Below, one piece after another: positions 1,865 to 35,410 of a DNA stretch of 64,000 bases. Below the pieces are notes generated by a model. The model was not told the origin of the DNA. It ran no database searches and saw only the letters and a program-made list of their open reading frames with translations. The stretch is from Candidatus Zhuqueibacterota bacterium (GTDB lineage Bacteria > Zhuqueibacterota > Zhuqueibacteria > Thermofontimicrobiales > Thermofontimicrobiaceae). The translations under genes were made by a program, and so were the position numbers. The stretch is taken from NCBI GenBank assembly GCA_034505795.1, contig JAPDQM010000007.1:1590-65589 (forward strand), read 5' to 3'. The first letter of the stretch is position 1; the number at the start of each line of letters is the position of its first letter.

Positions 1865-3196
1865 TTATCGAAAATAATATGGGTATCGGCGCTGTATCTT
1901 TTTTTGTTGCATATAATTTCTTGCCAGGTCCAAAAATATTTCGATATCGCGATCGAGATCAAAGGAGGTGCCATCAAAATAAAACAGGCGAATTGGAAAA
2001 TTGGCACATGCCTTACTCACCTGGGGGTAAACCGTTTCACAAACAATGCCATTCATGCAGGTGAATGGGCTGATGTCAATAACGCCATCTGCGCCATGGT
2101 GGTACAAATAAATCGCCTTGCCAACATTCAACACCATCTCACCCAATGCGCCATTTTGAGGAAGGTATGGGCTACTATAAGCTAAGACCTGTCTGATATC
2201 ATGCGGCTCTTCATATCCCTCAAACTCGGCTCGGAGTGGCTGTAATAAATAGTGTTCATCATGGCGCTGGATGGCAAATTTTATTTTTGCTGCCAACATG
2301 TCGCTTGAGTAACGTTTTCCGGCCCGAATCAATCGCCACCTCTGCTCATCGTTGGTGTACCAGAGCCATTCGGCAATATCGGAAATCCATATTTCGCCGC
2401 CCAATGCTTCGATTTTATTAATGAGGTAATTGTGGCTAAATTCATTTAGCCGACAAAATATCTCTCCAACCACGCCGATAAGGGGCTTATCTTTCGTAAA
2501 GCGTGCGGATAGCGAGTGATATCGCTTATTGGCACGTACTAAGCCTTGCCGCAGTTGCCGCAAGCAATGCCGGGGCCGAAGACCCTGGGTGGCTAAAATT
2601 GAGCTGAGTTCATCGAGACTTTGATGAAAGAGTTCATCAGCTAAATTTCTATTTACTACATAAGGTCGAATTTTTAAATGAAGCTTTCGCAGACAATCGC
2701 TGGCCAATAATGCGTGCCATGAGGTGCGGATGAGGGCTCGAGCGGCCTCACCAAAACCCTCATAACCATTAGCGCTGGTTGGTGAAATGACCAGCGCCTG
2801 CTCGTAACCCCGTTCACGCAGGATCTTTTTGAGCACGGCCTGATATTGGCCGAAACGGCAGGGCCCGCCGGAGGTCGGTAACAAAAAAGCAGTTCTGGCA
2901 GGATCGAATCCCGGGTCGTCGATAACTTTCAAAAAATCGCCCAGCGTGACGCGTTCAGGCAGGCATTCATCGCCATTCAGATATTTCGCGCTCAGTTCTA
3001 GCGTGCTCGAATCCGAAGCTGGCGATGGTTGAGCATGAATACCGGCCGCTTGAAATACAGCCGACATCAGCTTAGCTCCACTGTAGCTCATGCGCGGAAT
3101 ATAAAGCAATCTACCGACTATGGAAGCGCTCTTCTGTGATTGGGTTGACATCGAATCCGTTTCATGTTGTGGCCAAAGCTTCAGCATGGTCATCAA
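1865..3196 (-). CDS. hypothetical protein, possibly CoA-enzyme-activase-associated / 2-hydroxyacyl-CoA dehydratase-like (DUF2229/HgdB-like)
   Basis: 443 aa with several conserved-looking Cys (GGPCRFGQY, FCRLNEF, FTCMNGIVCE) and a VVGEIF.R motif reminiscent of the DUF2229 C-terminal region. Assignment is from memory of the family only. Confidence 0.35.
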   Translation of the reverse strand: MMTMLKLWPQHETDSMSTQSQKSASIVGRLLYIPRMSYSGAKLMSAVFQAAGIHAQPSPASDSSTLELSAKYLNGDECLPERVTLGDFLKVIDDPGFDPARTAFLLPTSGGPCRFGQYQAVLKKILRERGYEQALVISPTSANGYEGFGEAARALIRTSWHALLASDCLRKLHLKIRPYVVNRNLADELFHQSLDELSSILATQGLRPRHCLRQLRQGLVRANKRYHSLSARFTKDKPLIGVVGEIFCRLNEFSHNYLINKIEALGGEIWISDIAEWLWYTNDEQRWRLIRAGKRYSSDMLAAKIKFAIQRHDEHYLLQPLRAEFEGYEEPHDIRQVLAYSSPYLPQNGALGEMVLNVGKAIYLYHHGADGVIDISPFTCMNGIVCETVYPQVSKACANFPIRLFYFDGTSFDLDRDIEIFLDLARNYMQQKKIQRRYPYYFR

Positions 3197-5360: not shown

Positions 5361-6608
5361 CTACATGCCATACATGGCAATAATCTCTTCCTTGGTTTTG
5401 CCCAAGATATTATATTTTTTGCCCACTTTTATAAACGCGTCGAGGGCTTTATCCAGGTGATGTTGCTCATGGCCGGCAGAAATTTGCGTTCGGATTCTTG
5501 CCTGGCCTTTGGGCACTACCGGAAAGAAAAAGCCAATGGCATAAATTCCTTCGGCATACAAATCGCGTGAAAAATCCTGCGATAGCTTGGCATTGAACAA
5601 CATGACGGGCACGATTGGGGTATCTCCTTCTTTAAGGATAAAACCAGCCTCGGATAGCCCTTTCCGCCAATAAGCCGCATTTCGTTCCAGCTTATCCCGT
5701 CGTTCCGTGGTTTGCGACAGGATTTCTAAAACTTTCAAAATACCGGATACGATAACCGGCGCCACGGTATTTGAGAACAGATAGGGTCTGGCCCGTTGAC
5801 GGCAAAGTTCAACAATTTCGCGACGTCCGGAAACGCAGCCGCCAGATGCTCCGCCCAATGCTTTGCCGAAGGTTGTCGTAATAATGTCGATCTTGCCAAC
5901 GACGCCATATTTCTCGTGAGTGCCGCGTCCGGTCTTGCCGATAAAACCGGTGGCATGGGAATCGTCGACAAACACCATGGCATCATATTTTTCGGCTAAC
6001 GCCACCATTTCATCGAGCCGAGCGGTGTCTCCATCCATCGAAAAGACGCCATCGGTGATAATTACTTTTAGCCGTTTATCGGCATGGAATTGCAATTTCT
6101 CTTCCAGATGCTCCATATTTGAATGTTTAAATGTATCGTGCTGGGCCTTGCAGAGACGAATGCCGTCAATAATGGACGCATGGACCAGCCGATCTGATAT
6201 CATCACATCCTGTTCATTCAAAATTGCTTCAAATACCCCGGCATTGGCATCCATGCAGGAGGGAAAAAGAACCGTATCTTCGGTGCCCAGAAACTCTGTC
6301 ATTTTCTGTTCCAACTGATGATGGATGTCCTGCGTGCCGCAAATAAAACGAACCGAAGACATGCCGTAGCCTCTGTAATCCAGCCCTTGATGAGCAGCCC
6401 GAATCACTTCTGGATGGCTGGACAGGCCGAGGTAGTTATTTGAACACATATTGATCACTTTTTTCAAATTTGAACCGGCAGGATATTCCACCTCGATGTC
6501 CGCTGCTTGCGGGGCATGAATGAATCGCTCCTCTTTGAAAATCCCCTGATCACGAATAGCCTGCAAGTCCTGCTGGTAAAGTGCACGAATTTGATTACTA
6601 AATGCCAT
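5361..6608 (-). CDS. alpha-oxoamine synthase (serine palmitoyltransferase / cysteate-acyltransferase / Kbl-like PLP enzyme)
   Basis: PLP-lysine motif TTFGKALGGASGG and DDSHATGF, typical of AOS family class II aminotransferases. Start moved to internal ATG 6608 (MAFSNQIRAL), preceded by GGGGAG SD. Sits in an operon with ACP, acyl-AMP ligase and AcpS. Confidence 0.8.
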   Translation of the reverse strand: MAFSNQIRALYQQDLQAIRDQGIFKEERFIHAPQAADIEVEYPAGSNLKKVINMCSNNYLGLSSHPEVIRAAHQGLDYRGYGMSSVRFICGTQDIHHQLEQKMTEFLGTEDTVLFPSCMDANAGVFEAILNEQDVMISDRLVHASIIDGIRLCKAQHDTFKHSNMEHLEEKLQFHADKRLKVIITDGVFSMDGDTARLDEMVALAEKYDAMVFVDDSHATGFIGKTGRGTHEKYGVVGKIDIITTTFGKALGGASGGCVSGRREIVELCRQRARPYLFSNTVAPVIVSGILKVLEILSQTTERRDKLERNAAYWRKGLSEAGFILKEGDTPIVPVMLFNAKLSQDFSRDLYAEGIYAIGFFFPVVPKGQARIRTQISAGHEQHHLDKALDAFIKVGKKYNILGKTKEEIIAMYGM

Positions 6609-6720
6609 AATCGCTTCTCCCCTATTGTCAGTCAGAATTGAACGGAACACATTTTGGAGGCCCTGCCGTTGCGAATCGGCCACCAATTTGGGTTTAAGGG
6701 CTTATTTATTTCTGAGCGAC

Positions 6721-6969
6721 CTAAATAAACTGCCGCACCAATTCACAAATCTTATTTACGGTATCGAATGCTTCTGGAGTCGCTTTTTCATCGGGGATGG
6801 AAATCTTGTATTTATTTTCCAGAAAACGCTTCAATGAAACCATGGAGAACGAATCTACAATTCCGCCAGAAATTAGCGGCGTATTTACGGTTATCTCTTG
6901 ATCTTCATCTTCGAGATACTCTTTTTTCACATAATCGAGCACGATTTTTTGCATTTCATCCATAATCAA
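6721..6969 (-). CDS. acyl carrier protein (dedicated, stand-alone)
   Basis: 82 aa acidic protein with phosphopantetheine-site-like GGIVDSFSMVSL. Strong SD AAGGAGATT before the ATG. Confidence 0.7.
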   Translation of the reverse strand: MIMDEMQKIVLDYVKKEYLEDEDQEITVNTPLISGGIVDSFSMVSLKRFLENKYKISIPDEKATPEAFDTVNKICELVRQFI

Positions 6970-7061
6970 TCTCCTTGAAATTTGCTGTTCAAAATCAACT
7001 ATCGTTGCTAATCGCTAATGAAAGTTTAGGCAAAGTTCGAACTTCGTCCTCCAGCTAAGCA

Positions 7062-8765
7062 TCACTCATTTTCCAGGGTTGAAGTATCACCGATTTCTTC
7101 CCCCCATTCTTTGGCACGCAGGAGGCGACGCATGATTTTGCCACTTCGGGTTTTAGGCAACGAATCTACGAATTCAATCTCCTGGGGCATGGCCAGTGGG
7201 GAAAGTTTTTTTCGAATAAAATTCATGATGTTCAACTCCAGTTCAGCATCGGCATTGTAACCCGGTTTGACCGCTACAAATGCTTTTACGACTTCCATAT
7301 TGATCGGATCTGGCTTGCTAACAACCGCGGACTCGGCCACAGCTTCATGCTCTAACAATGCTGATTCAACCTCAAATGGGCTAACGAGGTGACCGCCGGT
7401 GTTAATGACGTCGTCGTCGCGGCCGACAAACCAAAAATAGCCGTCATTATCAATGGTCGCCCGGTCACCAGAGATGTACCACCCATTGATAAATTTTTTC
7501 TGAAAAGTAGCCTCATTTTTCCAGTAGGTTCGAATCATTGCGGGCCAGCCAGGTTTGAATGCAATCAAACCAATAGTACCGTTTCGGGATAGCGGCTCGT
7601 GCGTTTTTGGATCCAATACCGTCCCTGTTATGCCGGGGAATGGTTTGCCCATGGATCCGGGCTTTATTTTCATTCCAGGATAGTTGCTGATCATGATCGA
7701 GCCAGTTTCGGTCTGCCAATAGGTATCATGGAATGGCAAACCAAATACTTTTTCCGACCAGATAACTGCCTCGGCATTTAACGGCTCGCCCACACTGGCC
7801 AGATGACGCAAGGAACTGAGATCGTATTTTTTTACAATTTCATTACCCGCTTTCATCAGGGAGCGAATGGCGGTGGGGGCAGAGTACCAAACGGTGATGC
7901 GATATTTTTCGATAAATTTATACCAGGCATCAGCGGAAAAACCCGCATCCAGAACGCATTGGGTAATGCCCAGACTCCAGGGGCCGATAATCCCATACGA
8001 GGTGCCTGTTACCCATCCTGGATCGGCGGTACACCAGTAAATATCGTCGTCATGCAAATCCAGCACCCATTTGGTCGTCAAATATTGAGAGATTAATGAG
8101 TAATGTACATGTTGAACGCCTTTGGGCATACCAGTAGTTCCAGAAGTATAATGCAGAACCGACGGCGTCTCTGCCGTTGATGGAAAAATTTCAAGATCTT
8201 CAACAGGTGGAATGCTTTCCAATAGAAAGGCAACTTCTCGCTCTGGGAGTGGCTTGGGATCATCATAGTCAATGATGATAATATGCTTCAACGCGGGCAA
8301 TTTATCTTTAATTTTGCGCACCTTGGCAACATGTTTTTTTTGAGTGATAATGGCCGTGGTAGCAGCATTTTCGAGCCGTACAAACAACGACTCATCGCCA
8401 AAGGCAGAAAACAACGGCTGAGCAATGGCACCAATCTTCAAAATTCCAAGAAAGCCGATGTACAGCTCTGGCACACGATCCAGAAATAGGCACACGCGAT
8501 CACCATTTTTAATGCCTAAGTTTTTGAGGAAAGCGCCAATAGTATTGCTGGCCAGTCGGATTTCATTAAACGTATACTGCTTTTGCTTGCCGCTTGATCC
8601 CTCCCACAGCAACGCAATTTTATTTGCGCGACCCAGTTGACAGTTACGGTCAGCGCAATACCAGCCAATATTGATGGTAGCACCGGGTTTGTAGCCAAGT
8701 TCCTTCTCTGAAATCGACCAATCAAAATTCTTTACACGTTCTTCGTAAGATCCGATGTGTGACAT
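7062..8765 (-). CDS. AMP-dependent acyl-CoA/acyl-ACP synthetase (ACS/ACSM-like adenylate-forming ligase)
   Basis: AMP-binding motif HYTSGTTGMPKGV, YWQTETG, and C-terminal SGKIMRR lysine motif. SD AGGAGAG before the start. Confidence 0.8.
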   Translation of the reverse strand: MSHIGSYEERVKNFDWSISEKELGYKPGATINIGWYCADRNCQLGRANKIALLWEGSSGKQKQYTFNEIRLASNTIGAFLKNLGIKNGDRVCLFLDRVPELYIGFLGILKIGAIAQPLFSAFGDESLFVRLENAATTAIITQKKHVAKVRKIKDKLPALKHIIIIDYDDPKPLPEREVAFLLESIPPVEDLEIFPSTAETPSVLHYTSGTTGMPKGVQHVHYSLISQYLTTKWVLDLHDDDIYWCTADPGWVTGTSYGIIGPWSLGITQCVLDAGFSADAWYKFIEKYRITVWYSAPTAIRSLMKAGNEIVKKYDLSSLRHLASVGEPLNAEAVIWSEKVFGLPFHDTYWQTETGSIMISNYPGMKIKPGSMGKPFPGITGTVLDPKTHEPLSRNGTIGLIAFKPGWPAMIRTYWKNEATFQKKFINGWYISGDRATIDNDGYFWFVGRDDDVINTGGHLVSPFEVESALLEHEAVAESAVVSKPDPINMEVVKAFVAVKPGYNADAELELNIMNFIRKKLSPLAMPQEIEFVDSLPKTRSGKIMRRLLRAKEWGEEIGDTSTLENE

Positions 8766-9151
8766 AGACTCTCCTGCTCTAAAATGATAATAGCAACCGC
8801 CATTTGATTAAGATGCGAAACTGAGACATGTATTTTTGACACATGCAAAGCGTCAATTATTTTTTGAGCTTGCCCCGAAACGACAATGCTTGGCTTCCCC
8901 AATTCGTCATTTGTCATTGCGACGTCCCGCCATGATAATCCTTTTCGCCAGCCGGTGCCAATCGCTTTAAAAAAGGCTTCTTTGGCGGCAAAGCGAACAG
9001 CATAATTTTGCGCTTTGTTCTTTAGCTTGCTCTCACAATAGCTCACCTCGCTATCGCTGAAGACTCTGCGAATAAAACTTTCAGCGCCGGAACCCAGTTG
9101 CTTTTCAATTCGCGGGACCTCAATGATATCAATGCCGATACCCACTATCAA
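8732..9151 (-). CDS. acpS: holo-[acyl-carrier-protein] synthase (4'-phosphopantetheinyl transferase)
   Basis: MIVGIGIDIIEVPRIEK...FAAKEAFFKAIGTG is a classic AcpS signature. Its 3' end overlaps the ligase start by 34 nt (translational coupling). Confidence 0.8.
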   Translation of the reverse strand: MIVGIGIDIIEVPRIEKQLGSGAESFIRRVFSDSEVSYCESKLKNKAQNYAVRFAAKEAFFKAIGTGWRKGLSWRDVAMTNDELGKPSIVVSGQAQKIIDALHVSKIHVSVSHLNQMAVAIIILEQESLCHTSDLTKNV

Positions 9152-9188: not shown

Positions 9189-12100
9189 TCATCGAATAAG
9201 CAGCAACTTCTTCTGCAGGTTTAGATCAGACACTCTGAGCTGATAGAAATATACTCCTGACGCCACAGGTTCGCCCTTATCGCCAGTACCGTCCCAGAAT
9301 GCTGTGTAATACCCTTTGGCCTGAAGACCTGCAATCAAAGTTCGCACCTTCTGACCGTTGAGATTAAATATATCCAGTGTCACCTGCTGAAAAGATTCCC
9401 CTGCAATTTGATAATCAATCCGCGTCCAGCGATTGAAGGGGTTGGGATAGTTTTGGGCTAATTTATATTCGGTTGGTACGGGCAGCATAATATGGCCGCC
9501 TGGCTCCATGGTAACAATGGGCTGTGAACTGATCTCGATATTATCAATAAAAACGCCGGTAATCTTCCCCGGTGGCAGCGGCTCGTCGTCACTCACCCAC
9601 CGGAATCGCACTCGACTTAACGTGCCAGCAGCGATATCGGAGAGATCGTAATTATATGGCAACCAATCATTACCCATCAATACCGAATCCAGCGCTCCGC
9701 CGCTTCCGATGAAATCTAATTTCCGCCATTTCAAACCATCAAATACGTCGACATAAAAACCATTCACGCCATAGATAGCCACATTAAACCAGGCCCAGAA
9801 TGTCAGTCGGCTATTGTGACCCAGATAAAAAGCTGGACTTTCAAGCGTGGCGTCGTCATGGGGCAGATAATTGCCTGTGGCTTCGTCACCACAATACCAG
9901 GAATAGCCCCCAGAATAAGGATTTTGGGTTGACAGATGCCAATGATTGGACATTGCGTTGGGTCGATACCATCCTCCTGTCCCGTGTTCAAGATCGTCCT
10001 GGAAGCCAGTTGCTCCGATGGTCAGGTGGAACAACGGCGAGAACAGAAATCCCTCCTCGGTGGTGATGTTCAAACGAAAATCCGGAAACGATGGAATTGG
10101 CGGTTGTAGCGCCTGCACGATGAATGAATCCACAGCCATCTGCCCTGGAGCTATCGTTCCCCAGGCGCTGATTTTGGGATCGATTTGAATTTGGGGATCA
10201 GTGGTAGTGAGCGTCGACCGAACGTTATGAGCACTGGCCAGGCCATTGTTGACCACGCCAATGGTCAAACGGAATTTTTCACCGGGCTCAGGAATCGAAT
10301 TGCCGTTTCCCCATTCCCTGTCGTTGATTTCTTGATGTGAGAGCGAAATTACAGGGGCAGCGTTGGTCAAGGCAAGGGTTTGATTCCAGGCCAGGCCGGA
10401 CTCAGCTAAGATTTGGGCATTCAAATGCAAAACATATCCATTGGGGCATTGACGATCAACGGCGAGGATCAAGACATCCATGCATTCGGTGCTATCATTG
10501 GCAGCAATAGAACCGGCGATAGCGCTGGGATCGATCATGGTAATAAATGAATCGGTTGAAGTGACCGTTACAGTCACTTGATTCGCATCTGCCGCGCCAA
10601 GATTTTTCAATCTTAGCTTGAGGTGAACAGTTTCGCCCGGATTGATCAACCCATCTCCATTCCCTGTGCGATCATCAATGCCAAGATCGGAGCAAATTAC
10701 ATAAGGTGCGCTGGATTGAACTGCAATCGTCTTTTCAACGGGTAAAAAATTAGATGCCGTCACCGTGAGTTCGATTGGTTTTGAAGCATCTGTCACCGAA
10801 ATAGCGAATTGAATCTGCCCTGCGGCATCGGTGCGGCCATATTCATAGATAGTTTCAGCTTGCCTGAGACACACCAGGGCCTCTTCAAGTGGCGAACTGC
10901 GGTGAGTTACTGTGACTGGAATAACGGAATTGCCGATGTTTACCCGGGCGGGTGCTTGAACATTCAGATGGGAGGGAGCGTCCGTCCATACTGGCATTTC
11001 AGGATCACCCAGTAAATTGATTTCATACATGCACCAGCGGTAGACATTCTCTTGCCGGGCAAATGGCACATAATAAGCTTTGGCTAAGGCTAACGCCAGG
11101 CCCAAATTGTGGACCCGCTCTTTGAACAAAAAACGAAAAAACTGAAAGTCAAACCGATCAGAATAGCCATAGCCAGGATTGCCTGGCGAACCCCAGCCAT
11201 AGCGAGAGTTGCCGATAAAAGCCACTCCCCCGCCATTGGGATTATTCACATAATCTTCTGCAATGCAATCGACTTCAAAATTGGCCGGGTAGCAACCGAT
11301 GGAATAGAGAATACCTTGCATGGTACCATTGGTCAATGTCTGCATGTCCGCTCTTCGGAAATAGCCGTCCCCCATTCCCATGACATTGGCGCTGGCATGG
11401 CCATGGTGGTTAATGATATGTTGGCCGGCGTCAATAGCCGTGCGAACCGTGGCGATGGATTCATTGCCCAGGTCTTCATATAGCTTGGTGATCTCATAAA
11501 AATTAGGAGGCAAATATGCCTGTTCAATCATATCTTTGCCGATTCCAGTATTGGTATATGGATTGGCCCACAGGATCTCGGCAGCAAACAGCATCTTGCG
11601 CAAATATCCTTGCGGAGGATTTTTCTCATAAGTCAACACTTTATCAACAAAGACCTTCGCTTCCGCTGCATCTTCGACCGGCGCCCGGCCAACAATGACC
11701 TCAGGAATCATATTAATTTCATCGGCAATTTCGCCGAAAATCTGATCGCCATCATCATTCCAGGAGCCATCCAGATCCGCGTAGTACAGATCGCACGGAA
11801 TTTCGTTCTCCCGACGATCGCCGCCGAACTTGCAATCCATAGCAAAAGCGGTTCTGGCGGGGATAATGTTCACATCGCCTCCCAAAAGCACCCAATACAC
11901 GCCCCAGAGCTTCACTGCCTGGCGGATAAAATTTCGGATTTGTTCTTGCCTGTCTGAGCCTGCAAACTTGGCATAAATGTATTCGGTTGTTACGATAGTT
12001 GCTGGAACGCCTTTTTTGGTTTTCCAATCCAGAAGAGGCTTGAAATTGCTTTCCAGCGAACTGCTGGTAATAATTAAATATTCATATTTCGGAGTTGATT

Positions 12101-12779
12101 CAGATGCTTCATCTTTGGCAAGCGGTTTTTTCATCAGTAAAGAGCCAGCCATGTTTTTTACGAGCTTCGATGCCAGGATAGCAGAGAACTCAGTTTCGCT
12201 GATGGCATTTTGGGTCTGATGGTAACTTTCCTGCGTTGCAATGACTTGAAAGAGGATGTCTGAATAAAAAAACAGCTTTTGTTCTGCGGGATGATATTGC
12301 AGCGGATAAACACGAAGCGCAACAAGTTTGATGGCGCCCAAACGTGCCTCTCCCGCTAATTCGATGACTTGTGCGGGAAATGCGGCTTCGGAGGCATAGA
12401 TGCGCGCATTGGGTGTTGGAACATCGATTGCAGAGCTGTTTTTTGAATGTGCGGAAAGGATTTCTGGCCGAATTGCTGGAAGAATCGAATAATTTCCAGT
12501 CAGCAATTCAGGTTCTACCGCGGTCATTTCGATGTGATCGACGCGTTCATCGACTGGAATGGCCAGGTGAATAATTTGAAACGGTAGTTGTGGCGCTCCT
12601 ACCTGCGACGACAGTTCCAGCCCTTTCATAGTAACCACGTCAAAGTGGTAGCTTTTTGAAAATGCCAAATCGAGCTTATTAAAATGGTGGCTCACACTGA
12701 TATTTCTTGAATTCGAGATTTGAGTGACCATCAGCGTGAAGAACAATGTTTTGCTTATTAGGCAAATTAATTTTTTCAT
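9189..12779 (-). CDS. C25 (gingipain-like) cysteine peptidase with Ig/CARDB-like repeats and T9SS C-terminal sorting domain
   Basis: Signal peptide. YEYLIITSSSLESNFKPLLDWKTKKGVPATIV (C25 N-terminal core), putative catalytic His IINHHGHAS and Cys YSIGCYPANF. C-terminus LAQNYPNPFNRWTRIDYQ... is a Por/T9SS CTD. Confidence 0.7.
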   Translation of the reverse strand: MKKLICLISKTLFFTLMVTQISNSRNISVSHHFNKLDLAFSKSYHFDVVTMKGLELSSQVGAPQLPFQIIHLAIPVDERVDHIEMTAVEPELLTGNYSILPAIRPEILSAHSKNSSAIDVPTPNARIYASEAAFPAQVIELAGEARLGAIKLVALRVYPLQYHPAEQKLFFYSDILFQVIATQESYHQTQNAISETEFSAILASKLVKNMAGSLLMKKPLAKDEASESTPKYEYLIITSSSLESNFKPLLDWKTKKGVPATIVTTEYIYAKFAGSDRQEQIRNFIRQAVKLWGVYWVLLGGDVNIIPARTAFAMDCKFGGDRRENEIPCDLYYADLDGSWNDDGDQIFGEIADEINMIPEVIVGRAPVEDAAEAKVFVDKVLTYEKNPPQGYLRKMLFAAEILWANPYTNTGIGKDMIEQAYLPPNFYEITKLYEDLGNESIATVRTAIDAGQHIINHHGHASANVMGMGDGYFRRADMQTLTNGTMQGILYSIGCYPANFEVDCIAEDYVNNPNGGGVAFIGNSRYGWGSPGNPGYGYSDRFDFQFFRFLFKERVHNLGLALALAKAYYVPFARQENVYRWCMYEINLLGDPEMPVWTDAPSHLNVQAPARVNIGNSVIPVTVTHRSSPLEEALVCLRQAETIYEYGRTDAAGQIQFAISVTDASKPIELTVTASNFLPVEKTIAVQSSAPYVICSDLGIDDRTGNGDGLINPGETVHLKLRLKNLGAADANQVTVTVTSTDSFITMIDPSAIAGSIAANDSTECMDVLILAVDRQCPNGYVLHLNAQILAESGLAWNQTLALTNAAPVISLSHQEINDREWGNGNSIPEPGEKFRLTIGVVNNGLASAHNVRSTLTTTDPQIQIDPKISAWGTIAPGQMAVDSFIVQALQPPIPSFPDFRLNITTEEGFLFSPLFHLTIGATGFQDDLEHGTGGWYRPNAMSNHWHLSTQNPYSGGYSWYCGDEATGNYLPHDDATLESPAFYLGHNSRLTFWAWFNVAIYGVNGFYVDVFDGLKWRKLDFIGSGGALDSVLMGNDWLPYNYDLSDIAAGTLSRVRFRWVSDDEPLPPGKITGVFIDNIEISSQPIVTMEPGGHIMLPVPTEYKLAQNYPNPFNRWTRIDYQIAGESFQQVTLDIFNLNGQKVRTLIAGLQAKGYYTAFWDGTGDKGEPVASGVYFYQLRVSDLNLQKKLLLIR

Positions 12780-12809
12780 AATGCCATTCCAGCAGATTAT
12801 TCGGTAACA

Positions 12810-15176
12810 TCAGGGCAAGTGGATCATTTTTTGGGCCATCATTGTCTTATATGGTTCAAGTAGTCTCAGTCGATAAAAATAGACTCCTGCAGCTACCGCA
12901 TGGCCTTCGTGATCGCGAGCATCCCACATGACCTCATGGCTACCAGGAACTTGAAATACAAGATCGAACGAGCGGATAATTTGCCCAATGGCATTAAAGA
13001 TTTCAAGTTTTGCTGTCGTTGGGGCAGCGACCTCAATTCTTATTTGCGTTTGGCCATTGAATGGATTGGGATAATTTTGCGCCAGCAGAGCCGAGCCCGG
13101 CATGGTTTCGCGGTGTGACATGGCAACGGATGTTAGCGTCAAATCCTGGGTTCCCCCTGCCTTATGATAGCGCTCGGCGAACTCCTGCAAGTACAGATTA
13201 GCAATGAGGGGGCTCTTGATGATCAAAAAATTTTCGTCATTGCTATTTTCAGCCGCATTGCTCCAATTATACGACCCGGTGACCAGCGCTGAGTTGCCTG
13301 AACGGCCATCGCCATCGATGATCAAATATTTATGATGCAGATATTTTGCTTCTTTATCGAGATGCACATCAGCGGGCGGGTTCCAGGGCTGGCTGCCAGT
13401 GCCAATCAAATTATAATACTGGCTACCAGATAAGTCTTCGCCATCAATCACTCCTTTGATCTTAAACTCAGGAACAGTTTTCCATTTTCCATACATGGCA
13501 TTGGCGATTGAGGACTGGTTGAATGTCAACATGCAGAAATACAACGCGTGCTGTGCTTGCTCGATAGCAGCTAACAAAGCCTCCTGACCATGATCCGAGG
13601 GGCTCATATATTGTAGTACTTCGACACCGTTGATATTAAAACGGTGCGGCGTATTCTCAGTCTTGCGATAACCGAAGCGAGATTTGGCAGGATCAGGTGC
13701 GTCACGGTCACTGCCCCACATTTCATTAAACTCGATCGTATAGCATTCTGCCAGGGCTTGATCCTGGATTTCGATGACATTTTCGGCATTATACAATCGG
13801 GCGGATTCGGTGGCATTATATGAGCCGGTCCAGACCCAGTCGTCAGCAGCCGAGGTGGTGTCGCGATGATCGACAATCATGAATTTATTGTGCATTGCGG
13901 CATTACCGTTGTTGTCGCCAAAACGATCATTAATGATGGGCACGTTGGCATTTTTGAGGAATTGAACGGCATCGCTGTCGCCAGGTCGCTGGGAATCGTA
14001 ATCATAGATAACCCGAACTTTCACCCCGCGCTGAAATGCGCCTACCAATAGGCCTGCGGCTTCATCCAAAAAATAGAAACAGAAGTCGATCGAATACCTG
14101 GCCCCTTCGATACGCGCACCGAGCTTATTCAGTAGATTCGCCTTTTCGGCGTTGACACCAAACTGAGCATAACCTGGATCCACCGACTGATTAAAATAGA
14201 CATTCATTTTGCCGGTAGATGATGGGTTCGAGGCACTCATGACAATGCGATCCGCCGAATATTGATAATTGCCATTTGTGCCGGCTCCGACCCTGACATG
14301 ATACAGGGTTGCCGGCCATAATTGGGCCAAATGTACCAGATGGTTTTTCACTGATTCCTGTACGACAATGGTATCGATTTCATAATTTGAGGTTTTGCCA
14401 TAAATGACAATGGAATTCGTGGCGCTCTGAGTTTGCCATGTTAGGTCCATCGAGTATGGCAAAATATTTTTTTCGACCGGTCCAGAAACGATATCTAAAA
14501 CTGAGTTGTCGATGACATCGGCTTTGAATCGAGGCAGCAGTTGGTAGCCCTGGGTGTAAGGACTTTCGGGATCGTATTGCTGAATCACACCGATGACATC
14601 GAAGCGAGCGGCCGGCGCCGAGGTATTGCTCAAGTCGGTATCTTTGTCAATTCGAATTTCACAGGAACCCGTAGCATCGGTCAGAATAAAATTACTGCCA
14701 GCCCCAGAAACCGTCCATTTGCTGGTGTTGACAGCCACGTTGTTGATGCGAACCAATTGTCCCTCCAGCTTTTCGACACCATTGGCCCCCTCAGTGGCCA
14801 CATCCAAACAGGTAATGAGCTTTGGCACAACAGATGGAGCTCTGGGCACGCGAAGCAAAATTGTGACATTTTTTAATTCTGTCAATCCACTATACTGAGT
14901 CACGGTGCCAGAGATTTTAACCGAATCACCAATATTTACTTTAGAAGCGAAGTTTGCATCATAGATGGCTACTCCGCCGGTGCGATCCTGGATCGAGCCG
15001 GTAATGCCAAACTGATTGCTGACGGTAACTTCGCCAACGATGGTGACGGTCTGATTCAACAAGATTGGAACGCCCTGGGCGTCATTTTGATGAAGAGTAG
15101 CGATGTCGATAACTTGAGCCACCGCGGAGTTAACTAGAAAAATTAAGCCAAGAAGGATGCCATTTTTTTTCAACAT
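12810..15176 (-). CDS. secreted phospholipase D-superfamily protein (two HKD motifs; nuclease/PLD-like) with T9SS C-terminal domain
   Basis: HKD motif 1 MHNKFMIVDH...GSYNATESA. HKD motif 2 LHHKYLIIDGDG...GSYNWSNAAE. Start set at ATG 15176 (MLKKNGILLGLIFLVNSAVAQ signal peptide, SD GAGGA). C-terminus LAQNYPNPFNGQTQIRIE is a T9SS CTD. Confidence 0.75.
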   Translation of the reverse strand: MLKKNGILLGLIFLVNSAVAQVIDIATLHQNDAQGVPILLNQTVTIVGEVTVSNQFGITGSIQDRTGGVAIYDANFASKVNIGDSVKISGTVTQYSGLTELKNVTILLRVPRAPSVVPKLITCLDVATEGANGVEKLEGQLVRINNVAVNTSKWTVSGAGSNFILTDATGSCEIRIDKDTDLSNTSAPAARFDVIGVIQQYDPESPYTQGYQLLPRFKADVIDNSVLDIVSGPVEKNILPYSMDLTWQTQSATNSIVIYGKTSNYEIDTIVVQESVKNHLVHLAQLWPATLYHVRVGAGTNGNYQYSADRIVMSASNPSSTGKMNVYFNQSVDPGYAQFGVNAEKANLLNKLGARIEGARYSIDFCFYFLDEAAGLLVGAFQRGVKVRVIYDYDSQRPGDSDAVQFLKNANVPIINDRFGDNNGNAAMHNKFMIVDHRDTTSAADDWVWTGSYNATESARLYNAENVIEIQDQALAECYTIEFNEMWGSDRDAPDPAKSRFGYRKTENTPHRFNINGVEVLQYMSPSDHGQEALLAAIEQAQHALYFCMLTFNQSSIANAMYGKWKTVPEFKIKGVIDGEDLSGSQYYNLIGTGSQPWNPPADVHLDKEAKYLHHKYLIIDGDGRSGNSALVTGSYNWSNAAENSNDENFLIIKSPLIANLYLQEFAERYHKAGGTQDLTLTSVAMSHRETMPGSALLAQNYPNPFNGQTQIRIEVAAPTTAKLEIFNAIGQIIRSFDLVFQVPGSHEVMWDARDHEGHAVAAGVYFYRLRLLEPYKTMMAQKMIHLP

Positions 15177-15420
15177 AATCCTCAATGTTATGTTCAAGGC
15201 GCACATTAGTTCTGGAAGCGCACTGCGAATTGCAGTCTCTCGGGGAAATTTTTGTTGCCCTAAATATAAACATAAATAATTTTTCAGTCAAGTACATTAT
15301 CTGAAAAATTGCTTGAATTTTAATCCAGCAAGTGGTAAATTGAACTCCAGTAATGCTCATTGAGTATATAAAAATGACCAATTGCACGATGATTGGCAGG
15401 GCACAACTTTGAGGCGATTT

Positions 15421-29981: not shown

Positions 29982-32711
29982 ATGCAAAATGACACCCGTC
30001 TTAATCGAATCATTGCAGCAATTGTCTTTCTTATTTCATGGCTGGTTTATTTGCGGACCGTCGCTCCAACCACGTCCTTCTGGGACTGCGGTGAATTCAT
30101 CACCTGCTCCTACATTCTTGGCGTACCACACCCGCCAGGTGCGCCGCTCTATATCCTGGTCGGCCGTATCTTTAGCATGATTCCTTTTGTACAGGACATT
30201 GGGATGAGAGTGAATATAGTATCCACTATCGCCAGTGCCATAACGGTGATGCTGGCTTATTTGATCATCGTCAGGTTGATTACAATGTTTCGTGGTCGAC
30301 CGCAGCAAAACCTGGATCGGCTGATAGTATATGGCAGCGGGGTTATCGGTGCGTTGACTTTCGCCTTTACCGATTCCTTCTGGTTCAATGCCGTGGAAGC
30401 GGAAGTGTATGCCATCAGCATGTTTTTCACCTCATTGGTGCTATGGCTTATTCTGGTCTGGTATGAGAAAGCCGATGATCCAAATAGTGATAAGTACATT
30501 TTACTGATCGCGTTTTCCCTGGGATTGGCCATCGGCGTCCACCTGCTGATGATTCTGGCGATGCCCGCATTGTTCCTGATCGTCTATTTTCGAAAATATC
30601 AAAAAATCGAATGGAAGAATTTTTGGATGTTCGTGGGCTTATCATTCCTTGCGTTCGTGGCACTCTACCCCGGTATTGTGAAGTGGTTACCGAATTTGTC
30701 ATTATGGATGACACGAAAAACTGGTGCTGAATTCACAACATTCTTCTTCCTGGTATTCATTGGCGCATTGCTATACGGAGTCTATTATACCTATCGGACA
30801 AAGAAGCGGCTGGCGTTTCTTATTTGTGCCTCGTTCTTCCTGGTTCTATTGGCATCCTCAACCTACACCTCATTGTACATTCGTTCCGGGCTCAATCCCG
30901 ATATTGATGAAAACGATCCCGAAAATCTCGAAAATTTGGTTAGCTATTTGAATCGAGAGCAGTACGGCGACTGGAGTTATGTCGATCGCCGTGCGCCACT
31001 GTGGGACTACCAGATTGAAAAAATGTACCTGCGTTATTTTGGCTGGCAATTTATTGGCCAGGGCCAAACTCTGGATGATGAAGGCCGAATTGTCGAGAAT
31101 TATAGCCTTAATGGTTTGTTGGGGTTGCCATTCCTGGTGGGCTTGATCGGCATGGCGTTTCATTTTCGTAAAGATTGGAAAAATGCCTCGGCAATTATGC
31201 TTCTGTTCTTATTTACGGGAATTGCAATTGTGCTGTATTTGAATCAGGAAGATCCCCAGCCCCGTGAGCGAGATTATGTCTATGTCGGCTCATTCTTTGC
31301 TTTCGCACTGTGGATCGGAATTGGCATCACCGCGATCATCGACTATTTGCGTAAGTTGTCGAGCAAGTTTCCTGACTGGCAAAAATTGGCAATCATTGGG
31401 ATCGCCATGTTATTGCTCGCATTTATTCTGCCAGCAAATATGTTGGCCCATAATTTTAAATCGCATGATCGTACCGGCGAATATGTGGCTTACGACTATT
31501 CCTATAACATTCTGCAAAGTTGTGAGCCCAATGCGATTCTCTTTACCAATGGCGACAACGACACCTTCCCACTCTGGTTTCTGCAATATGTCTATGGCAT
31601 CCGGAAGGATGTTCGGGTGGTTAATTTGAGCCTTTTAAATACGCATTGGTATATCAAGCAATTGCGCGATCAGGAACCGCGCGTGCCCATCAGTTTGAGC
31701 GATGCTCAAATCATGAGCCTGCAGCCGCAGTATTGGCCTGAACCGCGGCCGATCCGCTTGGAAGTACCGCAAGACGCCTATCTCCGTGACCGCTCGGAAG
31801 TGTTGGGCGCCAAGCAAACTCTGCTGGCCGACACCAGCAAGCCACCTGAAATCACCTTCAAGTTGGAACCAACCCTCTATGGCAAAGGTATTCGGGTCCA
31901 GGATCTGATGATCCTGGATATCCTAAGGACTAATCGTTTCCGACGTCCGATATATTTTGCTTTAACCGTTTCGCGTGACAATCAGATCAATCTTTATGAT
32001 TATCTGCGGATGGATGGTCTGGTCTTTAAAATCGTTACCTATCCCACAAAAGATCTGCCCCTCTCCCCTACTCATCTGAAAGCGAATTTATTTGACAGAT
32101 TCCAGTATCGGAACTTAAATAATCCCGACGTCTATTACAACGAGAATATCAAGGGGCTGCTGCGCAACTATCAAGGAGCATTTTACAGCCTGGCGCAATT
32201 CTACGGCCGAGAACGGATGTTCGATAAAATGACTTCGGTGCTGGACAAGTTGACCACGGTTATGCCCGATTCGATTATTCCCATGCGCAAGGAATTACAG
32301 TTCGAGATGGGACGGTTGTATTATATCGGCGGTCAACAGGATAAATTTAAGGACATTCTTTATAAAATGATGAAGCGCGGCGATGTTTCTCTCGATGAAA
32401 AATTGCAATATGCCAGCTACTATGCCCAGCTTTATCCCACTGAGGCTTCTAAAGCGGTAGATCTGGTCAAACAGCTCCAGGACTGGTTTCCCAAAAATGC
32501 CGAGCCAACCTACTGGCTGGCCAGTCACTATTTGCGCACGCGAGAATATCAAAGCAGCATCGATGTGCTGAATCAATGGATCGCCAAAAACCCAGGTGAC
32601 AAAAATGCAGCGGATCAATTGCGGTCATTGCATCAGCTTATCGAGCAATCAAAACGAGCCGATTCGACGGCCAATCAGATCCGAAGTGATAGCGTGACAA
32701 CAGTAGAATGA
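29982..32711 (+). CDS. DUF2723/TMEM260-like polytopic GT-C-fold glycosyltransferase with C-terminal TPR region (paralog A)
   Basis: N-terminal LRTVAPTTSFWDCGEFITCSYILGVPHPPGAPLYILVGRIF matches the DUF2723 signature (acidic DxGE motif in the first extracytoplasmic loop, as in PMT/ArnT/TMEM260). About 11+ TM helices, then a TPR-like helical tail. 909 aa. Confidence 0.65.
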   Translation: MQNDTRLNRIIAAIVFLISWLVYLRTVAPTTSFWDCGEFITCSYILGVPHPPGAPLYILVGRIFSMIPFVQDIGMRVNIVSTIASAITVMLAYLIIVRLITMFRGRPQQNLDRLIVYGSGVIGALTFAFTDSFWFNAVEAEVYAISMFFTSLVLWLILVWYEKADDPNSDKYILLIAFSLGLAIGVHLLMILAMPALFLIVYFRKYQKIEWKNFWMFVGLSFLAFVALYPGIVKWLPNLSLWMTRKTGAEFTTFFFLVFIGALLYGVYYTYRTKKRLAFLICASFFLVLLASSTYTSLYIRSGLNPDIDENDPENLENLVSYLNREQYGDWSYVDRRAPLWDYQIEKMYLRYFGWQFIGQGQTLDDEGRIVENYSLNGLLGLPFLVGLIGMAFHFRKDWKNASAIMLLFLFTGIAIVLYLNQEDPQPRERDYVYVGSFFAFALWIGIGITAIIDYLRKLSSKFPDWQKLAIIGIAMLLLAFILPANMLAHNFKSHDRTGEYVAYDYSYNILQSCEPNAILFTNGDNDTFPLWFLQYVYGIRKDVRVVNLSLLNTHWYIKQLRDQEPRVPISLSDAQIMSLQPQYWPEPRPIRLEVPQDAYLRDRSEVLGAKQTLLADTSKPPEITFKLEPTLYGKGIRVQDLMILDILRTNRFRRPIYFALTVSRDNQINLYDYLRMDGLVFKIVTYPTKDLPLSPTHLKANLFDRFQYRNLNNPDVYYNENIKGLLRNYQGAFYSLAQFYGRERMFDKMTSVLDKLTTVMPDSIIPMRKELQFEMGRLYYIGGQQDKFKDILYKMMKRGDVSLDEKLQYASYYAQLYPTEASKAVDLVKQLQDWFPKNAEPTYWLASHYLRTREYQSSIDVLNQWIAKNPGDKNAADQLRSLHQLIEQSKRADSTANQIRSDSVTTVE

Positions 32712-32728
32712 AAGTGCGAGGCCTAAAA

Positions 32729-35410
32729 ATGGATCGAGAACTGTTCATTCATCGGTTGGGTGCAGCACTGGTGTTTATTTTCTCTTTGATTGTTTATAGC
32801 CTCACCATTGCTCCAACGACGTCATTTTGGGACTGCGGAGAATTCATTACCTGTGCATATATTTTGGGCGTTCCCCATCCGCCCGGGGCACCATTTTATC
32901 TGCTGCTGGGGCGAATCTTTTCCATGATCCCCTGGGCAGCAGATATTGGCTTGCGCGTTAACCTCATTTCCGCGATTGCCACCGCACTTACCGTGATGCT
33001 GACATATCTAATTATTGTCCGATTGATTAAGCTATGGCGTGGTCAGATTCGATCGGGCTCCGACCGATTGATTCATTATGGCAGCGCTATTATCGGCGCG
33101 CTGGCCTTTGCCTTTTCCGATTCCCTGTGGTTCAATGCCGTCGAGGCTGAAGTTTATGCCATCAGCATGTTTTTCACCGCGATTGTGCTCTGGCTAATTT
33201 TGGTCTGGCATGAAAAAGCCGATGATCCTCATAGTGATAAATATTTATTCCTCATCGCCTATTCCATCGGTTTGGCCATCGGTATTCATCTATTGAACAT
33301 CCTGGCACTGCCAGCAATATTTTTGATCTATTACTTCCGGCGTTATCAATTTCGCTGGTCGTCCTTTGCGGCGCTGATCGGAATCGGCTTGTTAATTTTT
33401 ATCGGGATCTATCCGGGCATTGTAAAGTGGCTGCCCAATTCAGCCCTTAATATGCAGCGACAATTTGGGCCGGAGCTGACCGCTGCCTTCTTTATTGCTA
33501 TGGCGGTAATGCTATGCCTGGTCCTCTGGTGGGCCTGGTTGCGCCGCCATCGTTCTGCTTTGGTGGTCGGGGTTTGCTTGCTCTTAATTTTGATCGGGGC
33601 ATCAACTTTTACCAGCGTTTACTTGCGCTCGCAGTTAAATCCAGCGATCGATGAAAATGATCCAGAAAATCTGGCAAACCTCGTCAGCTATATCAATCGT
33701 GAGCAATATGGCGATTGGAGTATCACCGAACGGCGAGCGCCTCTCTGGGAGTACCAGATCAAGAAAATGTATCTGCGCTATCTGGGTTGGCAGTACATCG
33801 GCAAAGGTACTACGATTGGCCCCGACGGATTCTTAGCTGAAACCATCAGCTTGAGCGGCCTGCTGGGGATTCCCTTTTTGATCGGCCTGCTGGGAATGGT
33901 ACATCATTTTTTCAAAGACTATCGACGCTCTCTGGCAATAATGGTCTTCTTCATCATGACTGGCGTGGCGATTGTCATTTATCTCAACCAAACGGACCCT
34001 CAACCACGGGAGCGCGACTATGTCTATGTGGCGTCTTTCTTTGCTTTTGCAATCTGGATTGGTATTGGGGTCGCCAGCGTGCTGGAATCGCTACTTGACG
34101 GCCATCAGGCGACCAGCCGTAGACAGAAGATAATGGCCATCGGTCTCTGGTTGGTGTTATTCATTTTCATTCCGCTGCGGATGTTGGCGTTCAACTATCA
34201 CTCGCACGATCGCAGCGGCAACTATGTTGCGTATGATTATTCCTACAACCTGCTGCAATCATGTGAGAAGGATGCAATTTTATTTACAAATGGCGACAAC
34301 GATACCTTTCCGCTCTGGTTTTTGCAGTATGTTGAAAATATCCGACCGGATATTCGGGTGGTAAACTTGAGCTTACTCAATACGCCCTGGTATATCAAGC
34401 AGCTTCGAGATCAGCCGCCACGGGTGCCCATCAGCCTGGTAGATGCTCAGATCGACCGCCTGAGTACTACCTATTGGCCGGAGAAAAAGCCAGTGTCAAT
34501 TGATGTGCCGCTGGAAGCTTATCAAAAGGCGCTCGATGATCTTGAACAACGGCAGGAGTTTGTTCCCAAAACCAGCACTGGTTCCCCTAAGATTAGCTTT
34601 GAACTGGGGCCAACTTTTATGGGCCAGGCAATACGGATTCAGGATATCATGATTTTGAATATCATTGCTGCCAATCGCTTCCGACAACCGATCTATTTTG
34701 CTGTCACGGTATCACCGGATAATTTGCTAAACCTGCATGACTATTTGCGCATGGATGGCCTGGCTTACAAGTTGGTGACATATCTGGGCGACAAAATCTC
34801 ACCTTCACGTCTGAGAGAAAACCTATTTGAAAAATTTCGCTATCGCAATCTCAACAATCCAAAGATCTACTACGATGATAATATCATTGGTCTCTTAATC
34901 AATTATCGCTCCGGATTTTTGCGGCTGGCGAATTTCTATCGGCAAGAAAAAATGACCGCTGAGATGCTGGCTACGCTGGACAGGATGGAGCAAATGATCC
35001 CTGAGAATGTCATTCCTATTCAGGATCGTCGCCTATCTTTAGGTATTGGTCAGTTGTATCTGGAAGCCGGCCGGCCCGAAGAATTCGCACGGCGGCTCGA
35101 GCTGTGGCTGCAAAAGCCTGGAATTTCCCTGGAGGAACGGCTCGAATTTGCACAGGTCTATTATCAAATGTTAGCTGATGCACCACGATCCGAAGCGATA
35201 GCCCGAACCATCATTCAAGAGGCGCCGCAGTTTCTGCGCGCCTACTATTGGCTGCTCAATTTATATGCCGAAACCCAGGCCTATCAGAAGGGACTGCAGC
35301 TTGCCGATGAGCTGCTGCAACGCCAACCTAATGATGTGCAGGCCCTGGCACGACGTCAGCAATTTCAACAGAAGCTGCAATTGCTGCCGGATTCGTCGAA
35401 AAGCAAGTAA
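32729..35410 (+). CDS. DUF2723/TMEM260-like polytopic GT-C-fold glycosyltransferase with C-terminal TPR region (paralog B)
   Basis: Collinear paralog of the previous gene (same SFWDCGEFITCAYILGVPHPPGAPFYLLLGRIFSMIP, NGDNDTFPLWFLQYV, VVNLSLLNT.WYIKQLRDQ.PRVPISL blocks). Start set at MDREL, which aligns with the paralog A N-terminus. The longer ORF from 32708 would overlap gene A by 4 nt. Confidence 0.65.
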   Translation: MDRELFIHRLGAALVFIFSLIVYSLTIAPTTSFWDCGEFITCAYILGVPHPPGAPFYLLLGRIFSMIPWAADIGLRVNLISAIATALTVMLTYLIIVRLIKLWRGQIRSGSDRLIHYGSAIIGALAFAFSDSLWFNAVEAEVYAISMFFTAIVLWLILVWHEKADDPHSDKYLFLIAYSIGLAIGIHLLNILALPAIFLIYYFRRYQFRWSSFAALIGIGLLIFIGIYPGIVKWLPNSALNMQRQFGPELTAAFFIAMAVMLCLVLWWAWLRRHRSALVVGVCLLLILIGASTFTSVYLRSQLNPAIDENDPENLANLVSYINREQYGDWSITERRAPLWEYQIKKMYLRYLGWQYIGKGTTIGPDGFLAETISLSGLLGIPFLIGLLGMVHHFFKDYRRSLAIMVFFIMTGVAIVIYLNQTDPQPRERDYVYVASFFAFAIWIGIGVASVLESLLDGHQATSRRQKIMAIGLWLVLFIFIPLRMLAFNYHSHDRSGNYVAYDYSYNLLQSCEKDAILFTNGDNDTFPLWFLQYVENIRPDIRVVNLSLLNTPWYIKQLRDQPPRVPISLVDAQIDRLSTTYWPEKKPVSIDVPLEAYQKALDDLEQRQEFVPKTSTGSPKISFELGPTFMGQAIRIQDIMILNIIAANRFRQPIYFAVTVSPDNLLNLHDYLRMDGLAYKLVTYLGDKISPSRLRENLFEKFRYRNLNNPKIYYDDNIIGLLINYRSGFLRLANFYRQEKMTAEMLATLDRMEQMIPENVIPIQDRRLSLGIGQLYLEAGRPEEFARRLELWLQKPGISLEERLEFAQVYYQMLADAPRSEAIARTIIQEAPQFLRAYYWLLNLYAETQAYQKGLQLADELLQRQPNDVQALARRQQFQQKLQLLPDSSKSK

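Follow-up and report, generated by a model that had tools for sequence, protein, structure and literature searches.

The closest described relatives of the locus analyzed here fall into five systems. In the AasR-AcpR-Spt system of Caulobacter crescentus and Escherichia coli BL21(DE3), a ligase of the ANL family loads a private carrier protein next to an alpha-oxoamine synthase (AOS), the serine palmitoyltransferase Spt, which uses the acyl-carrier (PMC9386255). SulA, the cysteate fatty-acyl transferase (CFAT) of Alistipes finegoldii, falls within the AOS enzymes' Spt arm, prefers an acyl carrier protein (ACP) thioester, uses housekeeping long-chain acyl-ACP and cysteate, and features an electropositive docking surface (PMC9304779). 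The remaining systems are threonine cleavage by threonine dehydrogenase (Tdh) and Kbl (E. coli kbl-tdh; EC 1.1.1.103 and EC 2.3.1.29), AMP-forming acetyl-CoA synthetases (Acs; Salmonella SeAcs, B. subtilis AcsA, SaAcs1), and Dlt, made up by the ligase DltA, the carrier DltC and the MBOAT protein DltB. A cassette of four genes resembling each of these systems in part resides in a stretch of 64,000 nucleotides (hereafter, the window) from a Candidatus Zhuqueibacterota bacterium (contig JAPDQM010000007.1, positions 1,590 to 65,589). Judged from sequence comparisons, the cassette on balance probably represents a carrier-protein-dependent, coenzyme A (CoA)-independent version of the acetate, glycine and 2-amino-3-ketobutyrate (AKB) reactions normally run on CoA.

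According to the list of open reading frames (ORFs) and the sequence, the four genes are arranged head to tail on the minus strand. An AcpS-type holo-[carrier protein] synthase (8732-9151; 139-aa ORF, TTG start) is followed by an AMP-forming Acs-like ligase (7062-8765; 567 aa, AMP-binding and AMP-binding_C matches), a carrier protein (6721-6963; 80 aa, ATG at 6963 and stop at 6721, in an ORF opening at TTG 6969), and an alpha-oxoamine synthase, a Kbl paralog here called AOS415 (5361-6608; 415 aa, ATG at 6608 and stop at 5361, Aminotran_1_2 match). The tight linkage of ACP, adenylating ligase, AOS and AcpS reported in the initial annotation is borne out by the coordinates, and Pfam and NCBIfam profiles agree with the family assignment of all four genes. 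The overlap of 34 nt was also correctly called, the end of AcpS being shared with the start of the ligase (8732-8765), as were the Shine-Dalgarno-like purine-rich stretches, found before every start (GGGAAAGGA, AGGAGA, AAGGAG and GGGGAG). The synthase gene is real, but a length of 416 residues had been obtained by counting the stop codon. A promoter and terminator scan found no minus-strand terminator inside the cassette; promoter-like matches are scattered over the region, and are uninformative. No riboswitch or RNA control, such as a glycine riboswitch, was detected by an Rfam search of the cassette and eight related loci, in which only an unrelated TPP element was found (L052).

The pattern of linkage was monitored in 80 related loci, retrieved by scanning the genome collection with the synthase (69-97% synthase identity), the window proteins being placed by tblastn. 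Of the 75 loci with enough DNA, 73 have the carrier next to the synthase, on its upstream side, with 58-98% identity to that of the window. Likewise, 62 of 70 loci have the ligase upstream of the carrier (64-94% identity), and 36 of 69 an AcpS homolog adjoining the ligase upstream (25-83% identity). Ligase, ACP and AOS415 keep the same order in about 60 of the 80 loci, distributed over more than 12 phyla. The 80 loci stem from KSB1-like bacteria, Zhuqueibacterota, Zixibacteria, Aminicenantes, Bacteroidales/Rikenellaceae, Ignavibacteria, Elusimicrobiota, Gemmatimonadota, Chloroflexota, Acidobacteriota, Eisenbacteria, Calditrichota and Planctomycetota; Cloacimonetes and Marinimicrobia were added by a second protein search. 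The identical layout was independently seen in three Zixibacteria metagenome contigs. No cultured host was found, a second homolog search seeded with a Rikenellaceae locus retrieving only metagenome-assembled genomes (MAGs) and metagenomes. The linkage of the cassette genes is far beyond chance; it is real, and either ancient or mobile.

Public databases name the module genes as plain Kbl ('glycine C-acetyltransferase') and Acs; the closest database protein to the window synthase, 100% identical, is labelled candidate division KSB1. These names would suit two ordinary neighbours, a true acetyl-CoA synthetase and a true CoA-dependent Kbl sharing acetyl-CoA, with AcpS and carrier serving something else, or the carrier being regulatory. 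The near-constant adjacency of a carrier, over so many phyla and itself so conserved, argues against ordinary neighbours, which are considered unlikely.

A few loci depart from the standard order. In distant AOS415 relatives (69% identity), found in MAGs of Gammaproteobacteria or unclassified, the carrier gene is located downstream and an MBOAT gene comes next (L083:1178-5257 and L082:5113-8416); a gene for an unannotated protein of 328-332 aa flanks them, and the contigs, which are short, show no ligase. In a Sulfotelmatobacter MAG (L077:3899-9719), a protein of 968 aa ending in a HAD-like domain replaces the ligase before the ACP-AOS415 pair, and an Acetyltransf_6 (GNAT) protein follows it; this arrangement may represent another way of loading or using the carrier. 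In Zixibacteria and Ignavibacteria the module is immediately followed by a gene for a third AOS paralog of 408-411 aa (L001:14086-15312, L013:9753-10988, and also L016). These proteins share about 60% identity among themselves and 31-38% with AOS415 and Kbl, and score below all NCBIfam cutoffs, the best match being Kbl (326 vs. 460).

The phosphopantetheine site of the carrier is Ser38, within the motif GGIVDSFSMVSL. The D-S-F serine is unchanged in an alignment of 76 homologs, and the modifiable residue assumed in the initial annotation is hence present. The match to the PP-binding domain PF00550 is at threshold (20.9 vs. 20.8). The protein is of the type II peptidyl carrier protein (PCP) or DltC-like kind; among solved structures the closest carriers are 6cxt, PltL, PigG and DltC, and in sequence it resembles type II peptidyl and D-alanyl carriers, which are loaded by stand-alone adenylating enzymes. 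The carrier is acidic (pI 4.5), and its helix-II motif PLISGGIVDSFSMVSLKRFLE is nearly without variation, as expected for a carrier with three or more partners. The cassette AcpS exceeds both TIGR00516 (108.4 vs. 59.8 bits) and PF01648 (68.3 vs. 25). The ornithine-lipid OlsHI carrier was considered and rejected. ACP_for_OlsHI is the best NCBIfam match, but at 63.7 vs. a cutoff of 130 the similarity is generic only. The OlsHI pathway relies on a GH3-like enzyme, and is found in planctomycetes.

The ligase looks at first sight like an ordinary Acs. It scores 768.7 bits against the acetate-CoA ligase model PRK04319 (cutoff 729), its best solved structure is the 572-aa AcsA 9g79 (569 bits, 47% identity over aligned columns), and it matches E. 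coli Acs at 338 bits, vs. 55 bits and 22% identity for AasR of E. coli BL21. Fold, family, acetate pocket and lysine motif are those of the AMP-forming Acs. Residues are given below in SeAcs numbering; V310, T311, V386, W414, Arg526 and K609 correspond to V252, T253, V325, W350, L460 and K543 of the window ligase. The acetate pocket (V310, T311, V386, W414) is kept in 51 of 51 module ligases, the gate residue being Trp in 47 and Phe in four. Trp414 sets the acyl range and keeps out acids larger than about C3, and gives way to a Gly in enzymes of the medium-chain kind (PMC10455477). The catalytic, acetylatable lysine (K609) and its acetylation motif are similarly conserved in 51 of 51, a feature favouring ordinary neighbours, as does the presence of a Pat-like acetyltransferase next to some loci. 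The latter is a protein of about 900 aa, featuring ADP-forming acyl-CoA synthetase domains and a C-terminal GNAT domain, and adjoins the module in several phyla (L001:11296-14016; L019, L022, L064 and L065). Its position hints that K543 of the window ligase is regulated by acetylation as in Acs.

The ligase differs from Acs in residues implicated in the use of CoA. Arg526 is highly conserved in Acs and required for the thioester step, Arg191, Arg526 and Arg584 being involved in CoA binding and thioester formation (PMC10455477). Arg526 is retained in E. coli Acs and in the AcsA structure, but replaced by Leu in 51 of 51 module ligases. In the same proteins Ser523 is changed to Gly or Ala, and the position of the CoA-loop residue Arg191 is variable (S/P/A/G), in a region where the alignment is uncertain. 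In a motif table compiled after an exhaustive search of representative proteins with the ligase, canonical Acs clusters feature G-[HE]-R, and a set of short Acs-like clusters the G-H-L of the module, with a Trp or a Phe gate. Ligases of the G-H-L (Leu526) type are also found outside the module, and four of the six analyzed adjoin a 77-82-aa protein in which the alignment reveals a G-x-x-D-S-[FL] carrier motif; three of these four are also associated with an MBOAT, in a Dlt-like layout. The small neighbour of an Arg-type control ligase is not a carrier (one informative control, the contig of the second being too short). Both the fixed loss of Arg526 and the pairing of other Leu526-type ligases with carriers are at odds with a plain acetyl-CoA synthetase.

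Leu526-type ligases with a Phe gate reside in four Dlt-like clusters (L087:129-4630, L089:5001-10524, L096:1324-5653 and L095:62-1936), which carry an MBOAT, a 77-82-aa carrier with the DS motif, a 354-393-aa uncharacterised protein and sometimes an ORF of 38-43 aa. L087, L089 and L096 are ligase-carrier-MBOAT clusters, in some of which the small ORF is located between carrier and ligase. These clusters may be carrier-dependent systems transferring small acyl groups, perhaps acetyl, to envelope polymers. The cassette is akin to Dlt in its DltC-like carrier and in these sister ligases. In contrast to Dlt, the window is devoid of an MBOAT, the carrier is partnered with a pyridoxal phosphate (PLP)-dependent synthase, and the ligase is Acs-like, not DltA-like.

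The window synthase carries the PLP lysine, K249, within TTFGKALGGASGG. In profile searches it exceeds both Kbl equivalog models (NF005394, 580 vs. 460 bits; TIGR01822, 579 vs. 493), and remains far from the Spt models (NF047600, 317 vs. 640; NF047599, 279 vs. 500; NF047603, 227 vs. 670). Comparison with solved structures gave 457-471 bits for Kbl, 235 for Spt and 185-195 for CFAT/SulA (7u7h, 195; 28eh, 185), a family with an active-site Lys281 as its hallmark, to which the synthase by its placement is unlikely to belong. Sequence identity amounts to 54% with E. coli Kbl and 31% with Spt of E. coli BL21. The resemblance to Kbl extends to the active site. Residues N50, V79, H136, H213, L272, F273 and R368 (in E. 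coli Kbl numbering, used hereafter except where window numbering is indicated) are unchanged in 64 of 64 synthases, as are the PLP residues K244, D210 and S185. These seven residues make up the substrate cavity defined in C. necator Kbl, which binds the carboxylate of glycine and threonine (PMC9814548); V79 is the gatekeeper restricting the amino-acid scope of the related ThAOS (PMC11906848). Since the pocket of the ligase and the cavity of the synthase are both conserved, the encoded chemistry would involve an acetate-sized acyl group and glycine or AKB, rather than a long-chain acyl group and serine or cysteate.

The latter chemistry was the one put forward in the initial annotation, according to which serine, cysteate or a different amino acid would be condensed with long-chain acyl-ACP on the way to a sphingolipid, a sulfonolipid or a new amino lipid. 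In favour of the proposal, AasR-AcpR-Spt is by architecture the closest system known, the succession of ligase, private ACP and AOS, with a phosphopantetheinyl transferase, being the same; both systems depend on phosphopantetheinylation of the carrier, and SulA likewise uses acyl-ACP. The private-carrier layout holds, but the parts are not orthologous to those of the E. coli BL21 cluster taken as reference (L086:835-4886), Spt and AasR being 31% and 22% identical to their counterparts, and AcpR lacking any detectable sequence similarity to the carrier. Unlike the reference, the cassette encodes an Acs-type ligase with an acetate pocket, a Kbl-type synthase and an AcpS of its own, and the product proposed is a C4 amino-keto acid in place of a long-chain base. 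The conserved Trp gate, the unchanged small-substrate cavity, and the failure of all Spt models also speak against a lipid product. Ceramide synthase, ketosphinganine reductase and cysteate synthase genes are missing among the window ORFs of at least 150 aa, and the genes recurrently found next to the module in relatives are Tdh and Kbl. As a whole these data make a lipid module highly improbable; neither the profile searches nor the active-site residues, both indicated in the initial annotation as ways to check it, lend it support.

AOS415 is not simply a Kbl of these organisms. Module synthases form a clade of their own, separate from canonical Kbl, in 100 of 100 neighbour-joining bootstraps, and differ from canonical Kbl at 21 fixed positions. 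N135, next to the His stacking on PLP, is Asn in 27 of 27 Kbl and Val in 64 of 64 AOS415 (Val142 in window numbering). The basic patch K147/R150/R152 of Kbl, in which R150 is present in 27 of 27 sequences, is mostly changed to Ser or Lys, His or Gln, and Thr, respectively. AOS415 proteins feature new unchanging residues (R133, K154, H155, H160 and K164), and the changes F112M and G116A, near the active site, are also fixed. Compared over 276 genome pairs, AOS415 shows the higher conservation in 98% of cases, the median being 81% for AOS415 and 72% for the Kbl next to it. Because a canonical Kbl adjoins the module in about 27 loci, AOS415 is a separate paralog, distinct in sequence from the housekeeping Kbl. 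The separate clade with its fixed differences, and the coexistence with a canonical Kbl, are not what ordinary neighbours would predict. We infer that the lost patch corresponds to the CoA-nucleotide site, and that the basic residues gained make up a docking surface for the acidic carrier; an electropositive landing pad for ACP has a precedent in SulA (PMC9304779).

The module may otherwise use its carrier for small molecules of a different kind. A C2-C3 acid, such as acetate, propionate or glycolate, would be loaded, and condensed with glycine or another small amino acid in a decarboxylative Claisen reaction to form an aminoketone, e.g. aminoacetone, a precursor of pyrazines or aminopropanol; or the acetyl-carrier would chiefly supply an acyltransferase. 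With the exception of Kbl, AOS enzymes decarboxylate, and the fixed changes N135V, F112M and G116A cluster near the active site. The Phe gate of four ligases, the ligase relatives working with MBOATs, and the outlier loci in which the AOS-ACP pair is tied to an MBOAT (L082, L083) or a GNAT (L077) fit this alternative as well. Yet all the residues binding the carboxylate of glycine and AKB, and those lining the Kbl cavity, are unchanged. Moreover, the near-universal presence of the module in uncultured fermentative lineages and its extreme conservation are unlike secondary metabolism, and a small-molecule route of this kind is rated as quite unlikely, also in view of the neighbours of the module in other genomes.

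These neighbours point to threonine. A Zn-type Tdh adjoins the module in Bacteroidales, Zhuqueibacterota and Zixibacteria (528 bits vs. a cutoff of 380). An SDR/GalE-like Tdh is found at the same place in Zixibacteria, Ignavibacteria, Aminicenantes and some Bacteroidales; it matches solved TDH structures with 423 and 407 bits, and is hence a threonine dehydrogenase, not a ketosphinganine reductase. Of the 52 loci with wide flanks, 26 contain one or the other type. The canonical Kbl located beside the module has 395-405 aa, with scores of 642-666 bits and an identity of 55-62% to E. coli Kbl. The genes are typically arranged as tdh-lig-acp-AOS415-kbl, tdh-kbl-lig-acp-AOS415 or tdh-acpS-lig-acp-AOS415. 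Since non-homologous Tdh enzymes were recruited beside the module, AKB is the likely shared metabolite; two unrelated Tdh types and a canonical Kbl point to AKB itself, rather than to an aminoketone. According to the initial annotation, clustering of the synthase with Kbl and a tdh gene nearby would count against a lipid pathway if the ACP were absent; the former two were found, tdh in relatives, but the ACP is present there. In three Ignavibacteria loci a lone gene for a BMC-domain (microcompartment shell) protein resides beside the SDR-type Tdh (L012:1803-2330, L013:3782-4345 and L059:8086-8754); a full microcompartment locus is absent at those loci.

The cassette shares with the Tdh-Kbl system a synthase retaining all the catalytic and cavity residues of Kbl, and, in relatives, flanking Tdh and often canonical Kbl genes. 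It departs from that system because AOS415 is paired with a carrier and an Acs-like ligase, and the thiol substrate is proposed to be protein-bound phosphopantetheine, not CoA. From the AMP-forming Acs, the ligase is set apart by the adjacent carrier, in addition to the changes at residues 526, 523 and 191.

In the proposed scheme, AcpS would attach phosphopantetheine to Ser38 of the private 80-aa carrier. The ligase would interconvert acetate, ATP and holo-carrier with acetyl-S-carrier, AMP and PPi, and AOS415 would interconvert acetyl-S-carrier and glycine with AKB and holo-carrier. Threonine dehydrogenase, encoded beside the module in many relatives and not in the window, would tie AKB to L-threonine. 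Putative roles of acetate:[carrier protein] ligase and of acetyl-[carrier protein]:glycine C-acetyltransferase, or 2-amino-3-ketobutyrate:[carrier protein] lyase, are therefore proposed for the two enzymes, on the grounds of their residues and partners. Gene content, synteny, family placement, the retained pocket residues and the clade-specific changes at the sites of the thiol co-substrate are observed directly, whereas the use of the carrier as thiol substrate by both enzymes, the acetyl nature of the acyl group and the direction of the reactions are deductions.

Several observations weigh against this scheme. Carrier use is deduced from gene context and residue patterns, and the scores of the two enzymes exceed the curated equivalog cutoffs of ordinary Kbl and of ordinary acetate-CoA ligase. 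R584, which contacts the 3'-phosphate of CoA in SeAcs, is kept in 51 of 51 module ligases. No carrier was found near two of the six Leu526-type relatives, one located in a polysaccharide cluster and the other on a short contig. Neither tdh nor a canonical kbl resides in the 64-kb window, although both may be located elsewhere in the genome. What advantage a carrier would offer over CoA is a matter of conjecture. The assignment of the patch K147/R150/R152 of Kbl as a CoA-nucleotide site, based on the ALAS-succinyl-CoA structure, is tentative. The Kbl and ThAOS papers list no CoA contacts (PMC9814548, PMC11906848).

Ligase and synthase cannot both be net producers of acetyl-carrier, and one of two directions must consequently hold. 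In the catabolic direction threonine would be converted to AKB, and AKB to glycine and acetyl-carrier, from which acetate would be released with formation of ATP from AMP and PPi. In the synthetic direction acetate and glycine would yield AKB, and then threonine or aminoacetone. The catabolic direction is slightly favoured, for a synthetic module beside a canonical Kbl would only be a roundabout Acs, and because the module proteins are conserved like core energy enzymes. Two further reasons are that the AMP-forming Acs of Syntrophus aciditrophicus, SaAcs1, is known to work toward ATP (PMC4992975; PMC13404658), and that the AOS-ACP-MBOAT arrangement of L082 and L083, with no visible ligase, suggests that the synthase can produce acetyl-carrier. 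The synthetic direction is kept alive by the carrier-loading ligases of the Dlt-like relatives, which must run forward, and by the gene of the glycyl-aminopeptidase family that is the downstream neighbour of the cassette in the window. A more tentative extension of the catabolic reading, possible rather than probable, is that the module serves CoA-independent energy conservation in uncultured anaerobic phyla, where it would be widespread: AKB made by Tdh would be cleaved onto the carrier, and an Acs-like enzyme working backward would form ATP. If so, substrate-level phosphorylation would proceed from a protein-bound thioester, and a private carrier pool would allow a high ratio of acetyl to free thiol, independent of the acetyl-CoA pool.

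In the window, the cassette is part of a long same-strand array, flanked on one side by a peptidase of the C25 family, of the type associated with the type IX secretion system (T9SS), and on the other by M61 and C1 peptidases. A 443-aa ORF (1865-3196, minus strand) has no Pfam or NCBIfam match, and is found at the same place, between the M61 and C1 peptidase genes, in KSB1-like/Zhuqueibacterota loci (L004 and L005); its PCRFGQY motif is similar to the DUF2229 part of proteins related to CoA-enzyme activases. Three large proteins (9189-15206 and 42983-45955), the C25 peptidase, a PLD-like nuclease or phospholipase and a PKD/Ig-repeat protein, end with FlgD_ig/CHU_C-type domains, of the kind that serves as T9SS sorting signal, and fit a KSB1 organism, FCB-group-like, endowed with a T9SS. 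Two tandem paralogs of about 900 aa (29982-35410), featuring N-terminal TMEM260-like protein O-mannosyltransferase domains, are located after a methyltransferase and a GT4 glycosyltransferase, and before an LPG_synthase_TM protein.

The cassette, in which Kbl and Acs are probably re-wired to a dedicated carrier, is apparently undescribed. No description of an Acs-type acetate:ACP ligase, of an ACP-dependent Kbl, or of this cluster was found in open-access papers and preprints, a limited scope. If the two activities are as proposed, they would be the first Acs-type ACP ligase specific for acetate and the first ACP-dependent Kbl, with ties to Acs-like ligase-carrier-MBOAT clusters, a wider group that is unstudied. 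Leu460 of the ligase, together with Val142 and the loss of the basic patch of the synthase, would serve as markers for re-annotation. If the true thiol substrate is the carrier, Acs and Kbl have a widespread carrier-dependent sister pair, which current annotation pipelines do not distinguish from them. Metabolic reconstructions of KSB1, Zixibacteria, Aminicenantes, Bacteroidales, Ignavibacteria and other bacteria of sediments and digesters, in which these genes are now read as 'acetate activation' and 'threonine degradation via acetyl-CoA', would be affected.

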